A stretch of DNA of 64,000 nt from positions 2,884 through 66,883 of the forward strand of contig JBBDIU010000142.1 in assembly GCA_040880205.1 (NCBI GenBank). Reading direction: 5' to 3'. The translations under genes were made by a program, and so were the position numbers. A model generated the notes under the pieces. That model saw only the letters and a list, made by a program, of their open reading frames with translations. It ran no database searches and was not told the DNA's origin. Source of the DNA: Cellvibrionaceae bacterium. GTDB taxonomy: Bacteria; Pseudomonadota; Gammaproteobacteria; Pseudomonadales; Cellvibrionaceae. Shown here piece after piece: positions 15,606 to 40,397 of the stretch (within the stretch, counting starts at the first letter, position 1; each line of letters starts with the position of its first letter).

Positions 15606-15836
15606 GTGACAAGGCAGCCTTTCGAAGATCTGTTTGACCGCGCCAGTAGCTTTCTCGGGGGTGCTGGCCCGGAGTTGGAGCGGCGGGTAAAATTGATGGT
15701 GCATTCGGCGCTAACCAGAATGGACTTGGTGACCCGGGAAGAATTCGATGCACAAACAAAGGTGCTGCAATACACCCGCGAGCGACTGGAAGCGCTGGAA
15801 CGACAGTTGGCGGAACTGGAAAAAGACAATCAGTAA
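15606..15836 (+). CDS. ubiK: Ubiquinone biosynthesis accessory factor UbiK (YqiC)
   Basis: MDLVTREEFDAQTKVL..TRERLEALE motif; GTG start; upstream of comM. Confidence 0.9.
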   Translation: MTRQPFEDLFDRASSFLGGAGPELERRVKLMVHSALTRMDLVTREEFDAQTKVLQYTRERLEALERQLAELEKDNQ

Positions 15837-15939
15837 TAACTACTAGCGAGAAGGGCTGGCAAGCGCTTTGGGAGTTAAGTAGACCAACTTCCCGCCCAAT
15901 CGGAAACGCATACAACAAGGAATATCAGCAGGAAAGCAT

Positions 15940-17457
15940 ATGTCCCTCGCCATCGTCCATACCCGAGCCCAGGTCGGGGTCGACGCACCACTCGTTACGG
16001 TCGAAGCGCACCTATCCAACGGACTGCCAGGCCTGTCAATTGTCGGCCTCCCCGAAACCGCCGTAAAGGAAAGCAAGGACCGGGTGCGCAGTGCCCTCAT
16101 TAACAGCTATTTCGACTTCCCCGCCCGTCGCATCACCATCAACCTCGCTCCTGCGGATTTACCCAAGGAAGGCGGGCGTTACGATCTGGCCATTGCTCTG
16201 GGAATTTTGGCGGCATCGGAACAAATACCCAAGGCAGCGCTCGCCGACACGGAATTTATAGGGGAACTGGCGCTTTCCGGGGAATTGCGCCAGGTCAATG
16301 GTAGCCTGCCGGTATCCATGGCATGCGCCAATAGCGAGCGCGCCTTGGTGGTTCCACGTGGCAACGGGGATGAGGCAGCGCTGTGCCGGAAGACCCGCGT
16401 TTACCAGGCCGGGTCGTTGCTGGAAGTTTGTGCCCATCTGCACGAGCGGGAAACACTGCCGGTAGCAACCCCCGGCACAACCTCGACGTTCAATGCCTAT
16501 CCGGACTTGTCCGAGGTAAAAGGCCAGGCGACGGCGAAACGGGCCTTGGAAATTGCCGCGGCGGGAGGCCACAATATTCTGTTCTACGGGCCACCGGGCA
16601 CTGGCAAAACAATGCTGGCCAGCCGACTGCCCGGCATTTTGCCGCCCCTTGAAGAAACCGAAGCACTGGAGGCGGCGGCGGTGGCATCGGTCGCCAGTGG
16701 TCGGGTCCCGGACAATTGGTTACAGCGGCCCTTTCGTTCACCCCACCACACGGCCTCGGCCGTCGCCATGGTGGGAGGTGGCAGTAACCCCAAACCCGGC
16801 GAGATTTCCCTGGCACATCGGGGCGTACTGTTTCTCGACGAACTACCGGAATTTCAACGCCAGGTGTTGGAAGTGCTCCGCGAACCACTGGAGTCGGGGG
16901 AAATTTGTATTTCCCGTGCCAATGCCCAGGTAGCCTTTCCCGCGCGCTTTCAGCTGGTTGCCGCCATGAATCCCTGTCCATGCGGCTATTTGGGTGCGGG
17001 GGACGACCGCTGCCACTGCTCGCCGAACCAAATATTGCGCTATCGGCGCCGAATATCCGGTCCCTTGCTGGACCGCTTTGATTTGCACGTGCCAGTAAAC
17101 GCGGTGAATACACGCCGTTTTCAGGAAGCTTCAGAAGGTGAAAGCTCGACCGCCATCCGAGCACGGGTAATGGCCTGCCGCGAACGCCAACGCAGCCGGC
17201 AAGATAAGAGTAATAGTCGCCTCAGTGGCAGGGAGCTGGAAAGAGTCTGTTGGTTGGATGAAGGGCAACAGGAGCTGTTGGAGACGGCGATGGAGAACCT
17301 GGGCCTGTCGGCAAGGGCCTATCATCGTACCCTGCGGGTGGCGCGGACCTTGGCGGATATGGAGGCTGCGCCCGAAGTGAGCACTCGCAACCTGACCGAG
17401 GCGCTTAGCTACCGGACACTGGACCGACGCAAGTCCCCAACCGGCGCCCTGGTGTAA
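15940..17457 (+). CDS. comM: YifB/ComM Mg-chelatase-like AAA+ ATPase
   Basis: IVGLPETAVKES, NLAPADLPKEG, GPPGTGKTML, PFRSPHH, LFLDE, AMNPCPCG. Confidence 0.96.
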   Translation: MSLAIVHTRAQVGVDAPLVTVEAHLSNGLPGLSIVGLPETAVKESKDRVRSALINSYFDFPARRITINLAPADLPKEGGRYDLAIALGILAASEQIPKAALADTEFIGELALSGELRQVNGSLPVSMACANSERALVVPRGNGDEAALCRKTRVYQAGSLLEVCAHLHERETLPVATPGTTSTFNAYPDLSEVKGQATAKRALEIAAAGGHNILFYGPPGTGKTMLASRLPGILPPLEETEALEAAAVASVASGRVPDNWLQRPFRSPHHTASAVAMVGGGSNPKPGEISLAHRGVLFLDELPEFQRQVLEVLREPLESGEICISRANAQVAFPARFQLVAAMNPCPCGYLGAGDDRCHCSPNQILRYRRRISGPLLDRFDLHVPVNAVNTRRFQEASEGESSTAIRARVMACRERQRSRQDKSNSRLSGRELERVCWLDEGQQELLETAMENLGLSARAYHRTLRVARTLADMEAAPEVSTRNLTEALSYRTLDRRKSPTGALV

Positions 17458-25298: not shown

Positions 25299-25973
25299 GT
25301 GGATCCCGGCGGGGTCCCGTCATTACCACAGGTGCAACCCGTGATCGACTTCCAACGCGCCCAGTTCAGCCAAAGCGCGCCCAGTGTTGCCGAATGCCCG
25401 CCCGACAGCGGGGCGGAAGTGGCCTTCGCGGGTCGCTCTAATGCCGGGAAGTCCAGCGCCATTAACTCCCTGACTGGCAACAACAAGCTGGCACGAACCA
25501 GCAAAACCCCCGGACGGACCCAGCTGATCAATTTTTTCGACCTTGACGCAGGGCGGCGCCTAGTCGACCTGCCGGGCTACGGTTACGCCAAGGTGCCGCG
25601 CGCGATCAAGGAACGATGGCAAAAACACCTATTGGAGTACCTGGAAAAGCGGCAAAGCCTGCGCGGCTTGGTGCTGCTCATGGATATTCGTCATCCGCTC
25701 CAGGAATACGATACCAAAATGCTCAATTGGGCTATACAGGTGGAGATGCCGGTGCATATCCTGCTCACCAAGGCCGATAAACTGAAGGCCGGTCAGCGTA
25801 ACAGCACGCTACTAAAACTGCGCCATCATTTGCAGGAGGCGGGGGTGGATGACCTGGTAAGTGCCCAGGCCTTTTCTTCCTTGAAAAAGCAAGGTCTGGA
25901 TGAGCTGGTGGTTAGGCTCAACGGCTGGCTGACGGATGCGGAATGCGCAGATGCCAATCAAGCGGGCAGCTAA
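25299..25973 (+). CDS. yihA: Ribosome biogenesis GTPase YihA/EngB
   Basis: [27 protein letters not shown]. True start may be GTG at 25332 or 25341. Confidence 0.96.
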
Positions 25974-26055
25974 CTCAAACCGTTGCGACAGAGCCGCGCG
26001 CCGACGCTCTCTGGTGTGACATAGCGCAATTGGTCTGCCGTAGCGCAAAAAAAGA

Positions 26056-26162
26056 CAAAAAAAACCCGACAGCTTGGGGCAACTATCGGGTCCAAAAACC
26101 AGTACTCTTGGGGCCGAGCACTGGAAGTTTTACTGAAACACATTGGGCATATGCTTCAGTAC
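26056..26162 (-). ncRNA. Candidate sRNA B: three hairpins with GCCC(C)A loops; last hairpin is the terminator
   Basis: Stems at 26131-26161, 26099-26124 and 26064-26091. Their non-Watson-Crick positions are all G-U on the minus strand. U8 tail follows; own sigmaE-type promoter upstream. Confidence 0.75.
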
Positions 26163-26168
26163 GTCAAG

Positions 26169-26195
26169 TGAGACTGGTTAGCCGACCGAATGTTC
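26169..26195 (-). promoter_or_regulatory. sigmaE/AlgU-type promoter of sRNA B
   Basis: Minus strand GAACAT-N16-TCTCA. Confidence 0.68.
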
Positions 26196-26220
26196 CCGAC
26201 CGCCAGCAAAAATCCAGGGC

Positions 26221-26331
26221 AAAAAAAGCCCCAGTGTTAAGACCGGGGCTACTTTGCTATCGGTTTGTGCTAAGCAAGGTTCGGCTTATAAAGCCAGCTA
26301 ATAGGAGAGTAAGACACCAATCAAATTGGTA
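26221..26331 (-). ncRNA. Candidate sRNA A (ErsA/Spot42 position) with anti-SD seed
   Basis: 5' hairpin ACCAAT-TTG-ATTGGT, then single-stranded CTTACTCTCCTATT, then terminator AGCCCCGGT...ACTGGGGCT + T-run; directly downstream of polA. Confidence 0.72.
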
Positions 26332-26335
26332 CGGT

Positions 26336-26362
26336 TAAGATTAGCTTAGCGAGAAAAAGTTC
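26336..26362 (-). promoter_or_regulatory. sigmaE/AlgU-type promoter of sRNA A
   Basis: Minus strand GAACTT-N16-TCTTA. Confidence 0.75.
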
Positions 26363-26433
26363 TCGACGAGGGGATGACGGATTTGTGCATCCAATCACGA
26401 TTCACCAGCGACCTGCTAGCGCTGTCGCGCAGT

Positions 26434-29160
26434 TCAGTGCGCCTCGTCCCAATTGTTGCCACTGCCCGCCTCCACCACCAGGGGCACAGCCAACTCCGCC
26501 GCGCTTCCCATCAGCTCACATAGGGTTTGGCTCACCTGTTCTACCGCTCCGGCTTCCACTTCCAGTACCAATTCGTCATGTACTTGCAGAATCATATTGG
26601 CCGGCACTTTCTCATTGTGTATCCAATTATCCACCGCGATCATTGCCTGCTTGATAATGTCCGCGGCACTGCCCTGCATTGGCGCGTTGATTGCCGTGCG
26701 CTCAGCGGCCTGCCGGCGCATGCCGTTGCGATCATTGATTTCCGGCAGGTACAAACGTCGCCCCATAATGGTTTGAACGTAGCCCTGTTCCCGAGCAAGG
26801 GCCCGCGTATTGTCCATGTAGCGACGCACACCGGGATAACGCTCGAAATAAAGATCAATATATTGTTGAGCTTCCTTGCGCCCGATGCGTAATTGGCGGG
26901 CAAGGCCAAAAGCGGACATGCCGTAAATAAGGCCAAAGTTAATGGCTTTGGCGCTACGGCGCTGCTCCGTGGTCACTTGATCGAGCGCCACACCAAACAC
27001 TTCGGCCGCAGTCGCCTGATGAACGTCGAGCCCCTCGGAAAACGCCCGCAATAGACCTTCGTCCCGCGACAGGTGCGCCATGATACGCAATTCAATTTGC
27101 GAGTAATCGGCGGCGACAATCTTGCAGCCGGACGGGGCGACAAATGCCTGTCGAATTCGGCGTCCTTCTTCCGTGCGAATGGGAATGTTTTGCAGGTTGG
27201 GATCGGAAGACGACAAACGACCCGTCGCTGTTACCGCTTGGTGATAGGAGGTATGCAAGCGTCCGGTTTCGGCGTTTATCATCTGCGGCAATTTGTCGGT
27301 ATAGGTGGACTTTAACTTGAACAGGCCGCGGAAGTTCATGATCAACTGCGGTAGGGGATAATCCAAGGCCAACTCCTGCAAGACTTCTTCGGCGGTGGAC
27401 GGCGCTCCCTTGGGCGTTTTTTTCAGGATTGGAAGTTTTAGTTTTTCGAATAACACCGCACAAAGTTGTTTCGGCGAACTAAGATTGAAAACCTCCCCGG
27501 CCATATCGCAAGCTTCTTCTTCGATTTGGCACAGCTTTTCGGCGATTTCCTGACTCTGCTTTTCCAGTGCCGCGCAATTGAGCAGCGCACCGCAACGTTC
27601 GATGCGCGACAGCACCGGCACCAGCGGTATTTCCAAACGCTCGAAAACTTGGCGCAAAGGGTCAATTGCTTCCAACTGCGGCCACAGGGTCTCGTGCAAT
27701 CGCAACGCGATATCGGCGTCTTCCGCCGCGTAAGGCGCGGCCAGTTCCAGCGGAATCGCATTGAAGGTCAGCTGCTTGGCGCCTTTTCCCGCGATCTCTT
27801 CAAAACGAACTGTGTTGTAGCTGAGGTGGCGGTTGGCCAGCGTGTCCATGTCGTGGCGGCTGGCGGTGGAATTGAGGACGTAGGATTCGAGCATTGTGTC
27901 GTAGGCAATGCCCTGTAGGTTGATGCCGTGATTGGCCAATATATTCTTGTCGTATTTCAGGTTCTGGCCGAGCTTGAGCTGCACCGGATTTTCCAACAGG
28001 GGTTTGAACCGCGCCAATACTTTGTCCAACGCGAGTTGTTGCGGCGCGCCTTCGTAGTCGTGCGCGACGGGCACGTAGGCCGCTTCTCCGGTTTGCACGG
28101 CAAACGACAGGCCGACCAGTCGTGCCTCCATATAATTGAGGCTGGTGGTTTCAGTGTCGAAGGCAAACACGGGCGCCGCTTCCAGACGCGCCAACCACTT
28201 TTCCAGCGCCGCCTCATCGAGGATGGTTTGATAATGGACCTTGTCCTTGTCCAGACTGTGAGCGGCGCGGGCCTCCTCACCACTCAACTCCACGAGCCAT
28301 TGTTTCAGTTCGTAGAGCTCGCACAATTCGATCAGTTTGCTGTGGTTCGCGGGATTAACCAGCAGGTCGGCCGGGGCCATGTCCAATTCGACATCGGTCT
28401 TGATGGTCGCCAGGCGGTAGGACAGGTAGGCTTGATCCTTATGTTCACGCAACTTGTCCGGCAGGCTCTTGGCCCCGCGCAGGGGCAATTCGGCCACGGC
28501 GTCGAGGTTGTGGTAGATATCATCCAGGCCGCCGAGCGCCTGGACCAGCCCAACCGCGGTCTTTTCACCGACGCCGGGCACTCCGGGAATATTGTCGGAC
28601 TTGTCGCCCATCAGCGCGAGAAAGTCGATCACCCGTTCGGGCGGGATGCCGAATTTGTCAATGACTCCCTGCCGGTCCATAACGGTATCGTTCATGGTAT
28701 TGACCAGCGTTACATGGGGGCTAACCAGCTGGGCCATGTCCTTGTCGCCAGTGGAAATCAGCACGTGGTGGCCTTCTCGCGTCGCCTGACAGGCCAGGGT
28801 GCCGATCACGTCATCCGCTTCCACGCCCTCAATAATCAACAGCGGCAGGCCCATGGCGCAGATAAGGTCATGCACCGCCTGGACCTGGCTGCGCAATTCA
28901 TCTGGCATTGGGGGTCGGTGGGATTTGTATTCGGCGAAGATTTCGTCGCGAAATGTTTTGCCCTTCGCATCAAATACCACGGCAATTTGGCTATTGGGAT
29001 AGTCCTTTTGCAGGCGCCGCAGCATGTTGGTCACCACCAGAATGGCGCCGGTGGCCCGGCCATCCCGGGTGCGAAGATTTTTGCTCTGCATGGCGTGGTA
29101 GGCACGGTAGAGGTAGGAGGATCCATCCACCAACACCAGGGGTACTGTTGCTGAGTTCAT
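26434..29160 (-). CDS. polA: DNA polymerase I
   Basis: [14 protein letters not shown] 5'-3' exonuclease, FDTET 3'-5' exonuclease, [26 protein letters not shown] at 29160. Confidence 0.98.
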
Positions 29161-29266
29161 ATTCGATCTAATGTGATGATGCGTGAAAGGGCCTATCTTA
29201 CCGTTCTCGCGCGACAGTGTTGGATTTTTTGTTGAAAGCGAGTGCTTACACACCCGCATATTTCCA

Positions 29267-29282
29267 TGGCACAAGAATAGCT
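29267..29282 (+). promoter_or_regulatory. Possible sigma54 promoter
   Basis: TGGCAC-AAGAA-TAGCT (GG-N10-GC) upstream of the 104-aa ORF. Confidence 0.45.
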
Positions 29283-37668: not shown

Positions 37669-39222
37669 TCATTTAACCTGTGGCGGTGTACTAAAGGTGT
37701 GGTAAGGCGCCGGCGACGGCACTGTCCACTCCAACCCTTCGGCGCCGTCCCAGACTTTGTCTTTGTCGGCTTTCTTGCCGCCAACAATGGTGCTGATGAC
37801 GTTAAACAGCAACAGAAGTTGCGCCATACCGAACATAAATGCGCCGATGCTGGACAGCATATTAAAGTCGGCAAACTGCACCGCGTAATCGGGGACCCGC
37901 CGTTGCATACCCGCCAGGCCGACAAAATGCTGAGGGAAAAATGCCAGGTTAAAGCCGACGAAGGCTATCCAGAATTGGGTCTTGCCCAGCATTTCGTTGT
38001 ACATGTTCCCAGTCCACTTGGGCAGCCAGTAGTAAATACCTGCGGTCAGACTGAAAATAGCGCCGGCTACCATGGTGTAGTGGAAATGCGCAACAACAAA
38101 ATAGCTGTCGTGGTATTGAATATCAGCCGAGGCAATGCCCAGCATCAGACCCGTAAAGCCGCCCATCACAAACAAAACCACGAACGCAATGGCGAATAAC
38201 ATGGGGGTTTCAAATGTTAGCGAGCCTCGCCACATGGTGGTAATCCAGTTAAACACCTTAACTCCCGTGGGAACCGCGATCAGCATGGTGGCGTACATGA
38301 AGTAAAGTTCGCCGGCGATGGGCATACCCACTGTGAACATGTGGTGCGCCCACACGATAAAGCTGAGGAAGGCGATACTGGCCGTGGCATACACCATGGA
38401 CGAATAACCAAACAGGGGCTTGCGGGAAAACGCCGGAATCACCTGGGAAACCACCCCAAAACCCGGAAGAATAATAATGTATACCTCGGGATGGCCGAAG
38501 AACCAGAACACGTGCTGGAAGAGCACCGGATCGCCGCCACCCGCCGCATCGAAGAAGGAAGTGCCGAAATGGATGTCCATCAGCATCATGGTAACCGCGC
38601 CCGCCAGCACCGGCATCACCGACACCAGCAGGTAGGCGGTGATCAGCCAGGTCCAGACAAACAAGGGCATTTTCGTCAGGGTCATGCCGGGGGCGCGCAA
38701 ATTGAGCACCGTGGCAATAATGTTAATGGAACCCATAATGGACGAAGCGCCCATGATGTGAATGGCAAATATAAAGAAAGTCACCGACGGCGGCGCGTAG
38801 GTAGTGGACAAGGGGGCGTAAAAAGTCCAACCAAAATTTGGGCCGCCACCTTCCATGAACATGGTGGACGCCAGCATCAAAAAGGCAAACGGGAGGATCC
38901 AGAAACTCCAGTTGTTCATGCGCGGAAGGGCCATGTCTGGAGCGCCGATCATCATCGGGATCATCCAGTTCGCCAAGCCGACGAAGGCGGGCATAATGGC
39001 ACCGAACACCATCACCAGGCCGTGCATGGTGGTCATCTGATTGAAAAACTCGGGGTCGACAATTTGCAGGCCGGGCTGAAATAGCTCCGCGCGAATAATC
39101 ATCGCGAAGGCGCCGCCCAACAGAAACATAGCCATGCTGAACCACAAGTACAGCGTGCCTATGTCTTTGTGGTTAGTCGTAAACAACCAACGACCAATGC
39201 CTTTTGCAGGACCGTGTGCCAC
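37669..39222 (-). CDS. coxA: Cytochrome c oxidase subunit I (A1 type)
   Basis: TNHKDIG, GHPEVY, WAHH, VVAHFH; GTG start. Confidence 0.98.
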   Translation of the reverse strand: MAHGPAKGIGRWLFTTNHKDIGTLYLWFSMAMFLLGGAFAMIIRAELFQPGLQIVDPEFFNQMTTMHGLVMVFGAIMPAFVGLANWMIPMMIGAPDMALPRMNNWSFWILPFAFLMLASTMFMEGGGPNFGWTFYAPLSTTYAPPSVTFFIFAIHIMGASSIMGSINIIATVLNLRAPGMTLTKMPLFVWTWLITAYLLVSVMPVLAGAVTMMLMDIHFGTSFFDAAGGGDPVLFQHVFWFFGHPEVYIIILPGFGVVSQVIPAFSRKPLFGYSSMVYATASIAFLSFIVWAHHMFTVGMPIAGELYFMYATMLIAVPTGVKVFNWITTMWRGSLTFETPMLFAIAFVVLFVMGGFTGLMLGIASADIQYHDSYFVVAHFHYTMVAGAIFSLTAGIYYWLPKWTGNMYNEMLGKTQFWIAFVGFNLAFFPQHFVGLAGMQRRVPDYAVQFADFNMLSSIGAFMFGMAQLLLLFNVISTIVGGKKADKDKVWDGAEGLEWTVPSPAPYHTFSTPPQVK

Positions 39223-39233
39223 TGTTTACTCTC

Positions 39234-40397
39234 CTATTGTTCGAACTGTAATACGTCGACGGGCTGAACTTGATCGCCCATGTCATTACCAAAGGCGTTA
39301 CGTTGGAAGGTAACGACGGCTGCGGTTTCAACCGGCGTCAGCTGTGCGCCGAAAGCCTGCATCGCGGTTCCCGGAACGCCATTGACCACGACGTCCAAGT
39401 GTTCTTCGATGGTGCCAGTGGCAACGGCGCTGCCCCGAATGGCCGGAAACGCACCCGGAACACCTTCGCCGTTTGGCCCATGGCAGGAAGCACAAGAGCG
39501 GTTGTAAACGGATTGCCCTTGCGAATAGAGATCCTCGAAGGAAAAAGTCTGGCCGGCCAGCTCGCGCATTTCCGCGGCGAAGGCTTGCTGTTCGGCGATC
39601 CACTGGTCAAACTCTTCCTCTTCCACCGCTTTCACCACAAAGGGCATAAAGCCGTGATCACGGCCGCACAGCTCCGCACAGACGCCCCGGTAAACTCCGG
39701 GCTCCTCGATTTTGGCCCAGGATTCGCGCACAAATCCCGGTATTGCGTCTCGCTTGACGCCCAGATCGGGGACCCACCAGGAGTGAATGACGTCGTTGGC
39801 GGTTACCAGAAAACGGATTTTTTTGTTGATCGGCAGTACCAAGGGGCGGTCAACTTCGAGCAGGTAATTGGGAACGGTTCTAGGATCAATACCAGAACCG
39901 AGCTGCCGGGCGGCATTGCTGTCTTCGTGCAGATTGGAAAAAAAGCTCACATTGCGGCCCAGGTATTCGTACTGCCATTTCCACTGGTAACCGGTTATTA
40001 CCACATCCATATCCACGTCGGTGTCGGTGTCGTAGAGATGAATCAATGATCGGGTTGCGGGAATCGCCATGGCGACAAGAATGAGGAAGGGCACCGCGGT
40101 CCAAAAGATCTCCAGGCCGAGGTGCTCATGGAATTGTGAAGCCTGGGGATGTTTGGATTTGCGGTGCGCATACATGGTGTAGGCGAGCGCGGCAAATACG
40201 ACAACGCTGATGGCCACACAGATGATGAAAATCAACATGTGCAGCCCATAAATTTCCTGGCTGACAGGTGTTACGCCCCGGGTCATATTGACCCCCCAAC
40301 GCTCGGCTTCGTTCGCGATCGCCTGGTGGCCTGTCAGGCCTAGCAGGATTGCGAAACCTAGCAGCTGGTGGAAAAGCAGTTTGGCTCTTCTCAACAT
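39234..40397 (-). CDS. coxB: Cytochrome c oxidase subunit II with fused cytochrome c
   Basis: DVIHSW, CAELCGRDHGFM CuA motif, C-terminal CASCH. Confidence 0.97.
   Translation of the reverse strand: MLRRAKLLFHQLLGFAILLGLTGHQAIANEAERWGVNMTRGVTPVSQEIYGLHMLIFIICVAISVVVFAALAYTMYAHRKSKHPQASQFHEHLGLEIFWTAVPFLILVAMAIPATRSLIHLYDTDTDVDMDVVITGYQWKWQYEYLGRNVSFFSNLHEDSNAARQLGSGIDPRTVPNYLLEVDRPLVLPINKKIRFLVTANDVIHSWWVPDLGVKRDAIPGFVRESWAKIEEPGVYRGVCAELCGRDHGFMPFVVKAVEEEEFDQWIAEQQAFAAEMRELAGQTFSFEDLYSQGQSVYNRSCASCHGPNGEGVPGAFPAIRGSAVATGTIEEHLDVVVNGVPGTAMQAFGAQLTPVETAAVVTFQRNAFGNDMGDQVQPVDVLQFEQ

Follow-up and report, generated by a model that had tools for sequence, protein, structure and literature searches.

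What does the spacer between polA and engB encode in the genome of an uncultured gammaproteobacterium, and does it represent a new kind of gene? The spacer belongs to a stretch of 64,000 nucleotides, analysed as a whole and called the window here, from a metagenome-assembled genome (2.9 Mb, 171 contigs, 85% complete, 55.5% G+C). The original prediction placed in it an RNA gene of no named family, with its own promoter and three hairpins whose stems are unrelated and whose loops are similar and C-rich, acting either by base pairing or as a protein sponge. The analyses performed indicate that this three-hairpin element, located downstream of polA on the same strand, between polA and engB (Table 1), is very probably a genuine gene for a small regulatory RNA. 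The reading that we favour, with a probability of about 0.7, is a trans-acting sRNA gene of ~107 nt with a sigmaE (RpoE/AlgU)-type promoter and its own terminator, a divergent homologue of ErsA, anti-hemB/ncS04 and sX13, whose C-rich loops would pair with G-rich sites near target starts. Judged by sequence and predicted fold, the RNA is a divergent, unannotated member of an already described and widespread polA-adjacent RNA group and not a new kind. For the element itself the outcome amounts mostly to annotating it correctly and less to a discovery, and it illustrates the breadth of the polA-adjacent RNA family.

Table 1. Features of the polA-engB spacer and its surroundings, in window coordinates
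Feature	Position	Strand	Basis
Candidate sigmaE/AlgU-type promoter GAACAT-N16-TCTCA	26169..26195	minus	read from sequence
Promoter parts: -35 GAACAT; 16-nt spacer; -10 TCTCA	26195-26190; 26189-26174; 26173-26169	minus
Predicted transcript, ~107 nt	about 26057..26163	minus	start inferred from -10 element, end = U-tract
Hairpin 1, 12-13 bp, loop GCCCA at 26148-26144	26131..26161	minus	MFE fold and R2 consensus alignment
Hairpin 2, 9 bp, loop GGCCCCAA at 26115-26108, then U5	26099..26124	minus	MFE fold
Hairpin 3, 11 bp, loop GCCCCA at 26080-26075	26064..26091	minus	MFE fold
Hairpin 3 with U8 (run to 26057), called as intrinsic terminator	26057..26093	minus	terminator pattern scan
Type A RNA, promoter GAACTT-N16-TCTTA at 26362-26336	26221..26362	minus	sequence and terminator scan
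polA (DNA polymerase I), upstream of both RNAs	26434..29274	minus	ORF list; tblastn to polA at relatives' loci
engB/yihA GTPase gene, convergent with the RNA	25299..25973	plus	ORF list; EngB relatives; Pfam MMR_HSR1 on same-genus orthologue

The elements described originally, namely the promoter, the three stems with their loops and the closing U8, are all present on the minus strand, and minimum free energy (MFE) folding returns the same hairpins. The minus-strand fold of positions 26170-26050 has an energy of -51.7 kcal/mol (z -7.65) and consists of exactly three hairpins, and none of 200 shuffled sequences was as stable; hairpin 3 lengthens to 13 bp once the flanking G-U/G-U pairs are included. 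The plus strand, read in the direction of engB, gives -28.2 kcal/mol (z -0.65) and no stable structure. Counted from the sequence, the non-Watson-Crick pairs are five G-U pairs (2 + 1 + 2 over the hairpins), and since these would be C-A mismatches on the plus strand, where z is only -0.65, the earlier argument for a minus-strand RNA from the G-U positions holds, as does the claim of a minus-strand RNA gene with its own promoter. A pattern scan of 25900-26500 for a sigma70-like promoter found none. In this genome, hairpin loops do not commonly contain GCCC or CCCC: either motif occurs in the loop of just four of 182 terminator-like hairpins genome-wide and CCCCAA in one of the 182. Hairpin 2 with its U5 (26094-26124, minus) was also scored as a weaker terminator-like site; an isoform of ~65 nt stopping after hairpin 2 is conceivable.

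RpoE is encoded in the same genome (328 bits on TIGR02939), beside RseA, and the GAAC-N-TCnnA arrangement precedes the homologues of the RNA in relatives too. The rpoE-rseA operon occupies 15614-16797 (minus) of contig C103 of the host genome (G000), with a GAACTT-N16-TCTAG sequence ~180 nt upstream of the predicted rpoE start that, going by the motif, is probably an autoregulated sigmaE promoter. The stricter pattern GGAAC[AT]T-N15-17-TCTNA was found at only three sites genome-wide, one of which is the promoter of the three-hairpin RNA.

The promoter arrangement is repeated within the spacer itself. An RNA of the same design, termed type A here (the three-hairpin RNA being type B), lies ~60 nt upstream of the three-hairpin RNA and still downstream of polA; it opens with a small hairpin, continues with UUACUCUCCUAUU as a single-stranded seed and closes with a terminator whose end is near 26221. 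In 50 genomes of the family whose sequence downstream of polA was retrieved, this region usually contains between one and three units with a sigmaE promoter, and type A (seed GGUGUCUUGCUCUCC) stands first after polA and type B (CCCCAAG loops) second, an order that recurs in many of the family's genomes.

At gathering scores, no Rfam RNA family matches in the whole window, and a search of the whole genome with RF01719 (Pseudomon-1/ErsA) listed nothing. A permissive local search of 600 nt (25900-26500) gave RF01719 as the best match, at 27 bits against a gathering score of 50 (E 0.0035); this match is full-length, with model positions 1-116 covering window positions 26150-26049 on the minus strand. 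On the same RNA RF02837 (anti-hemB), one among the much weaker matches, stays below threshold, with 15.5 bits against 49.5 (E 0.6), and RF02232 (sX13; gathering score 50 bits) has no match at E <= 10 in 25900-26500. The Rfam search that the original prediction had suggested thus came out divided, with no match at gathering score and a full-length one beneath it, and the idea that the RNA belongs to no named family has to be given up in view of this match, of the ErsA slot that it occupies and of the family that it forms with the ErsA, anti-hemB/ncS04 and sX13 loci, as set out below. Within the order to which the host belongs, RF01719 scores above threshold in only one family (three of three genomes, 121-134 bits). 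Full-length sub-threshold matches occur in many other families of the order; most of the stronger ones adjoin polA and/or engB, and these stronger matches have the CUACUCCUUAUGUGUUUAGUGUUGGCA seed and CCCCAAG loops in common.

Closer relatives reveal which parts of the RNA are kept. In a genome of the same genus the RNA is ~90% identical, and every change in a stem is compatible with G-U or G-C pairing. Hairpins 2 and 3, with CCCCAA loops and a GAAC...TCnAA promoter, recur in two further genera of the family, whose stem sequences and 5' hairpin differ; when each type B RNA is folded by itself, CCCCAA(G) comes to lie in hairpin loops, and the stems that carry them have unrelated sequences. Hairpin 1 retains its GCCC loop only in three genomes of two genera (the genus of the window, including G001, plus G195), and in G195 this loop is accompanied by a change of two outer A-U pairs to G-C. 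In other family members hairpin 1 is not conserved and the 5' hairpins are different, several short type B RNAs having an unpaired UGCCCUU-GAUG at the 5' end instead. The G195 sequence also bears on an ATG-initiated ORF of 57 codons (26143-25970, minus) that overlaps the RNA and might encode a small protein. The probability of this is close to nil, as the ATG, which no Shine-Dalgarno sequence precedes, falls within the 3' arm of hairpin 1, the frame crosses the terminator, and indels among relatives are not multiples of three; in G195 the frame stops after ~14 codons, and for this lack of conservation the ORF was rejected.

Plain MAFFT alignments left the helices out of register, RNAalifold recovering only fragments from them, and were replaced by covariance-model alignment. 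The first model, R1, was built from six type B sequences, with the window sequence included in the seed, and searched against 79 loci from which the genus of the window was excluded. It gave 55 matches, including three canonical ErsA loci (L085-L087) at 25.9-28.8 bits. Over these 55 relatives, 90.3% of cells in the two 3' helices are paired (95.5% for the helix of hairpin 3), and every one of the 20 pairs has changed on both sides (hairpin 2, 9/9; hairpin 3, 11/11). The covariation score is 0.839, against 0.208 with shuffled partners (0 of 500 shuffles reach 0.839) and at most 0.095 with partners slid by 1-3 columns, a margin that is large even though the alignment was fitted to the model, which favours structure. 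CCCC is found in the loop of hairpin 2 in 37 of the 55 relatives and in that of hairpin 3 in 42. The original suggestion that different stems present selected loops therefore stands for loops 2 and 3, which keep CCCC(AAG) across families amid compensatory stem changes, but not for loop 1, whose GCCC is confined to two genera.

These results leave very little room for the reading in which there is no independent gene and the hairpins are nothing but terminators or remnants of repeats lying between the convergent polA and engB genes. U runs do follow hairpins 2 and 3, and the spacer does separate convergent genes, as such a reading would have it; however, the RNA possesses its own conserved sigmaE-type promoter, transcription from polA already meets the terminator of the type A RNA, the strand read towards engB is devoid of stable structure, and both covariation and loop conservation extend across many families. 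We consider it highly improbable.

A second model, R2, was built from the 55 R1 matches, without the genus of the window, and scores the window RNA at 86.3 bits over 26154-26057 (E 1.2e-15 for the window and 5.3e-14 for the genome, both rough values from a shortened calibration). A covariance model from relatives' loci, proposed originally as a check, thus recognises the RNA, with helices 2 and 3 covarying. At E <= 0.01, R2 finds matches in 39 of 150 other families of the class, each represented by one genome, and polA and/or engB lies within 1.5 kb at 20 of the 29 fetched loci. Although these 20 syntenic matches were located by the RNA body alone, a strict GAAC-N18-21-TCnnA motif occurs within 70 nt upstream at 11 of them, compared with 1.2% of background windows, and several other syntenic loci have near-variants such as GAAACTT.

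The models of separately named RNAs meet at these loci. RF02837 matches 16 of the polA/engB RNAs found by R2, four of them above its gathering score. An sX13 locus in the class sample (L199, genome G222, 1501-1614, minus), ~160 nt downstream of polA, scores 103 bits with RF02232 and 34.6 bits with R2, and RF02232 in turn gives 26-37-bit matches on polA-engB RNAs of four other families. In the sX13-bearing family (31 genomes), 13 of 24 R2 matches lie directly beside polA, which makes chance matches an unlikely explanation. Given the common locus and the cross-matching models, ErsA, anti-hemB/ncS04, sX13 and the present RNA look, as far as sequence comparison goes, like branches of one polA-adjacent family. 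They share locus, helix pattern and C-rich loops; a sigmaE-type promoter is found at ErsA- and anti-hemB-type loci and is not evident at the one sX13 locus examined. Rfam places RF01719, RF02837 and RF02232 in no common clan. A literature search returned no paper naming sX13 and ErsA together, and the link may still be published. Such a relationship would allow knowledge to be transferred both ways, from the loop mechanism of sX13 to ErsA-type RNAs and from the sigmaE control of ErsA to the others.

ErsA of Pseudomonas aeruginosa is an Hfq-associated base-pairing regulator of envelope and biofilm genes (algC, oprD, mlaA and others). It is transcribed by the envelope-stress sigma22 and represses algC, oprD, mlaA and fleN via an unstructured region after SL1 that acts on ribosome-binding regions (PMC5819304, PMC13613067). 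With oprD it forms a perfect duplex of 10 nt directly 3' of SL1; pairing has been validated for the stretch of nt 26-56, which separates SL1 from SL2, and the C-rich loops are given no role in these papers (PMC5819304; PMC13613067). The window RNA resembles ErsA in its slot downstream of polA and convergent with engB (canonical loci L085 and L086 are arranged alike), in a promoter motif of the envelope-stress sigma (sigma22/AlgU) type, with rpoE-rseA present in the genome, and in its two 3' hairpins with C-rich loops, the last of which is the terminator. At the 5' end it can be aligned with the seed region of ErsA: in the R2 consensus, the CUCCU...UGUGUUUAGUG seed of ErsA-type RNAs coincides with hairpin 1, namely with its loop and 3' arm. 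The two differ in that the window RNA scores only 27 of the required 50 bits, has CCCCAAG loops where ErsA has CCCCGCCCUAGC or CCCCUCCCCAUAC, and stands in tandem with a type A RNA. They differ also in that CUCCU belongs in ErsA to an unstructured, U-rich stretch directly after SL1, whereas here the corresponding GCCCA AUGUGUUUCAGU is folded into a hairpin of 12-13 bp, of which it makes up the loop and the 3' arm.

This alignment raises the question of whether the same RNA gene might instead act through a linear, ErsA-type seed, AUGUGUUUCAGU with an A/U-rich linker, exposed when hairpin 1 opens and perhaps assisted by Hfq, the C-rich loops serving for stability, chaperone binding or termination. 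The conserved seed of the extended family with which hairpin 1 aligns speaks for this, as does the experimental pairing of ErsA through its unstructured stretch and not its loops (PMC5819304; PMC13613067), and hfq is present in the host genome. Against it, hairpin 1 is a stable stem whose pairing is kept by compensatory changes in G195, which indicates selection on the stem and not on a free seed, and among type B members there is little conservation at the 5' end, in contrast to the conserved loops. A linear seed is thus the less probable mode of action, and we regard it as unlikely.

Pairing through the loops has a precedent in sX13 of the Xanthomonadaceae. Situated 175 bp downstream of polA, that RNA exposes C-rich sequence in three apical loops, and its repressive effect needs 4C/5C loop motifs together with G-rich motifs near the target start codon and is independent of Hfq (PMC3771888). 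Like sX13, the window RNA is positioned downstream of polA, is of similar length (sX13 measures ~110 nt) and folds into three stable stems with apical C-rich loops; R2 matches sX13 loci beside polA, and loop 2 at L199 (G222) reads UCCCCAAG, the heptamer core of window loops 2 and 3. Unlike in sX13, loop 1 of the window RNA has only three C, and RF02232 has no match on it; no clear GAAC-N16-TCnnA precedes the sX13 locus examined (L199) at the spacing expected of a promoter, and in the sX13-bearing family polA but not engB is adjacent.

A further branch is represented by anti-hemB, also known as Burkholderia RNA 7 or ncS04, the latter being an expressed 105-nt RNA of Burkholderia cenocepacia without known function (PMC5688073). 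Polymerase-adjacent RNAs of other families found by R2 at polA-engB reach or approach the RF02837 gathering score, and RNAs of the anti-hemB type share the sigmaE-type promoter and C-rich loops with the window RNA. Their first loop, however, is CU-rich (UCCCUCCCU) compared with GCCCA in the window RNA, which itself reaches only 15.5 bits on RF02837. Spot 42 of Enterobacterales is a CRP-controlled, Hfq-dependent regulator of carbon metabolism without C-rich loops. Its gene, spf, occupies the polA-engB (yihA) slot as the window RNA does (PMC3771888), but Rfam searches gave no sequence or model match between the two. Staphylococcus aureus RNAIII and RsaE, whose C-rich (UCCC) loops pair with G-rich ribosome-binding regions (discussed in PMC3771888) and which the original prediction had named, are related to the window RNA neither in lineage or locus nor in sequence and offer an analogy only.

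Taken together, an ErsA-type promoter, an sX13-type anatomy, a loop 1 at the position of the ErsA seed and CCCCAAG in loops 2 and 3 make a sigmaE-induced, loop-pairing RNA the most likely interpretation. The window RNA is most likely, then, a base-pairing regulator whose expression, sigmaE dependence and loop pairing we infer from these features. Upon envelope stress, sigmaE (RpoE/AlgU) would transcribe the RNA, the second (type B) of what appear to be two tandem paralogues, up to its own intrinsic terminator. The three C-rich loops would be its accessible elements, loop 1 standing at the position of the ErsA anti-Shine-Dalgarno seed, and by base pairing with G-rich stretches near the translation start of targets they may repress translation as part of the envelope-stress response. 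This would add one unannotated regulator to the envelope-stress regulon of the organism.

A repeated loop motif on unrelated stems is also what would be expected of a protein-titrating RNA, in which the three C-rich loops would capture multiple molecules of an RNA-binding protein, as CsrB/RsmY do, but through another motif. The genome contains a homologue of RgsA (contig C6 of G000, 2849-2962, plus, equal to L166:1501-1614; RF00628 68.7 bits against a gathering score of 88.4, E 5.9e-16), which is the second-best R2 match in the genome and carries CCCCCCAAG and CCCCCAG loops and a ACUCCUAA stretch, although it belongs to another locus and another family and has no GAAC-N16-TCnnA visible upstream. 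Its CCCCAAG loop makes a shared partner conceivable. Yet the CsrB-like sponge envisaged in the original prediction is without support and a Csr/Rsm sponge was rejected, as none of the loops contains GGA or ANGGA and the single GGA sits at the base of hairpin 3. To our knowledge, no bacterial protein of this group recognises CCCC loops. The loops of sX13, moreover, act with G-rich mRNA motifs and without Hfq (PMC3771888). Titration of a protein is accordingly given a low probability, below that of the linear seed, and loop pairing with G-rich RNA sites is retained as the preferred mode.

The genome of the host was searched for such sites. The loop complements TTGGGG(C), CTTGGGG and TTGGGC are not enriched at its predicted start regions, so that the search suggested originally gave no positive result; TTGGGG, for example, occurs near start codons 87 times, with 74 expected and 60 on the antisense strand. 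A duplex-energy scan with the whole RNA was dominated by meaningless full-length duplexes, and a scan of start regions with each loop returned no envelope-related or otherwise compelling top matches. Among the known ErsA/sX13 targets, the start regions of two mlaA genes (with crude gene starts) and of hfq show only weak complementarity. A perfect 12-nt complement on contig C36 was rejected as a target because it is located inside a coding sequence, and a 10-nt complement within a gene resembling that for cytochrome oxidase subunit III is no more than chance predicts, ~23 such 10-mers being expected.

The tandem arrangement invites a broader, tentative hypothesis. An ancestral envelope-stress RNA of the polA locus may have been duplicated and its functions divided, type A keeping the CU-rich anti-Shine-Dalgarno seed, which matches the coxA ribosome-binding site perfectly over 13 nt, and type B becoming a multivalent, loop-only regulator in which all accessible elements are GCCC/CCCCAAG loops. 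We regard this as possible but rather less than probable. If true, the near-invariant CCCCAAG loop, common to RNAs of three separate Rfam families and to the RgsA homologue, would point to one conserved partner, a G-rich RNA site or a protein, beyond what the ErsA literature describes, and the A/B tandem would provide a natural case for studying sRNA duplication and division of labour.

The number of copies at this locus or close to it varies among relatives. Two type A units and one type B unit are present in G020 (L004), two nearly identical type A units in G011 (L143), and ErsA-like units in tandem in G035 (L091); in one genus of another family (L089/L094/L096) paired ErsA-like copies adjoin neither polA nor engB. 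In the window, the type A seed has an exact 13-nt complement, AAUAGGAGAGUAA, at 39226-39238 (minus), before a GTG start at 39222. The gene concerned encodes cytochrome c oxidase subunit I (ORF 39222-37669, minus; N-terminus MAHGPAKGIGRWLFTTNHKDIGTL); its Shine-Dalgarno region is covered by the complement, and its start region ranks second of 3286 in duplex energy with the type A seed.
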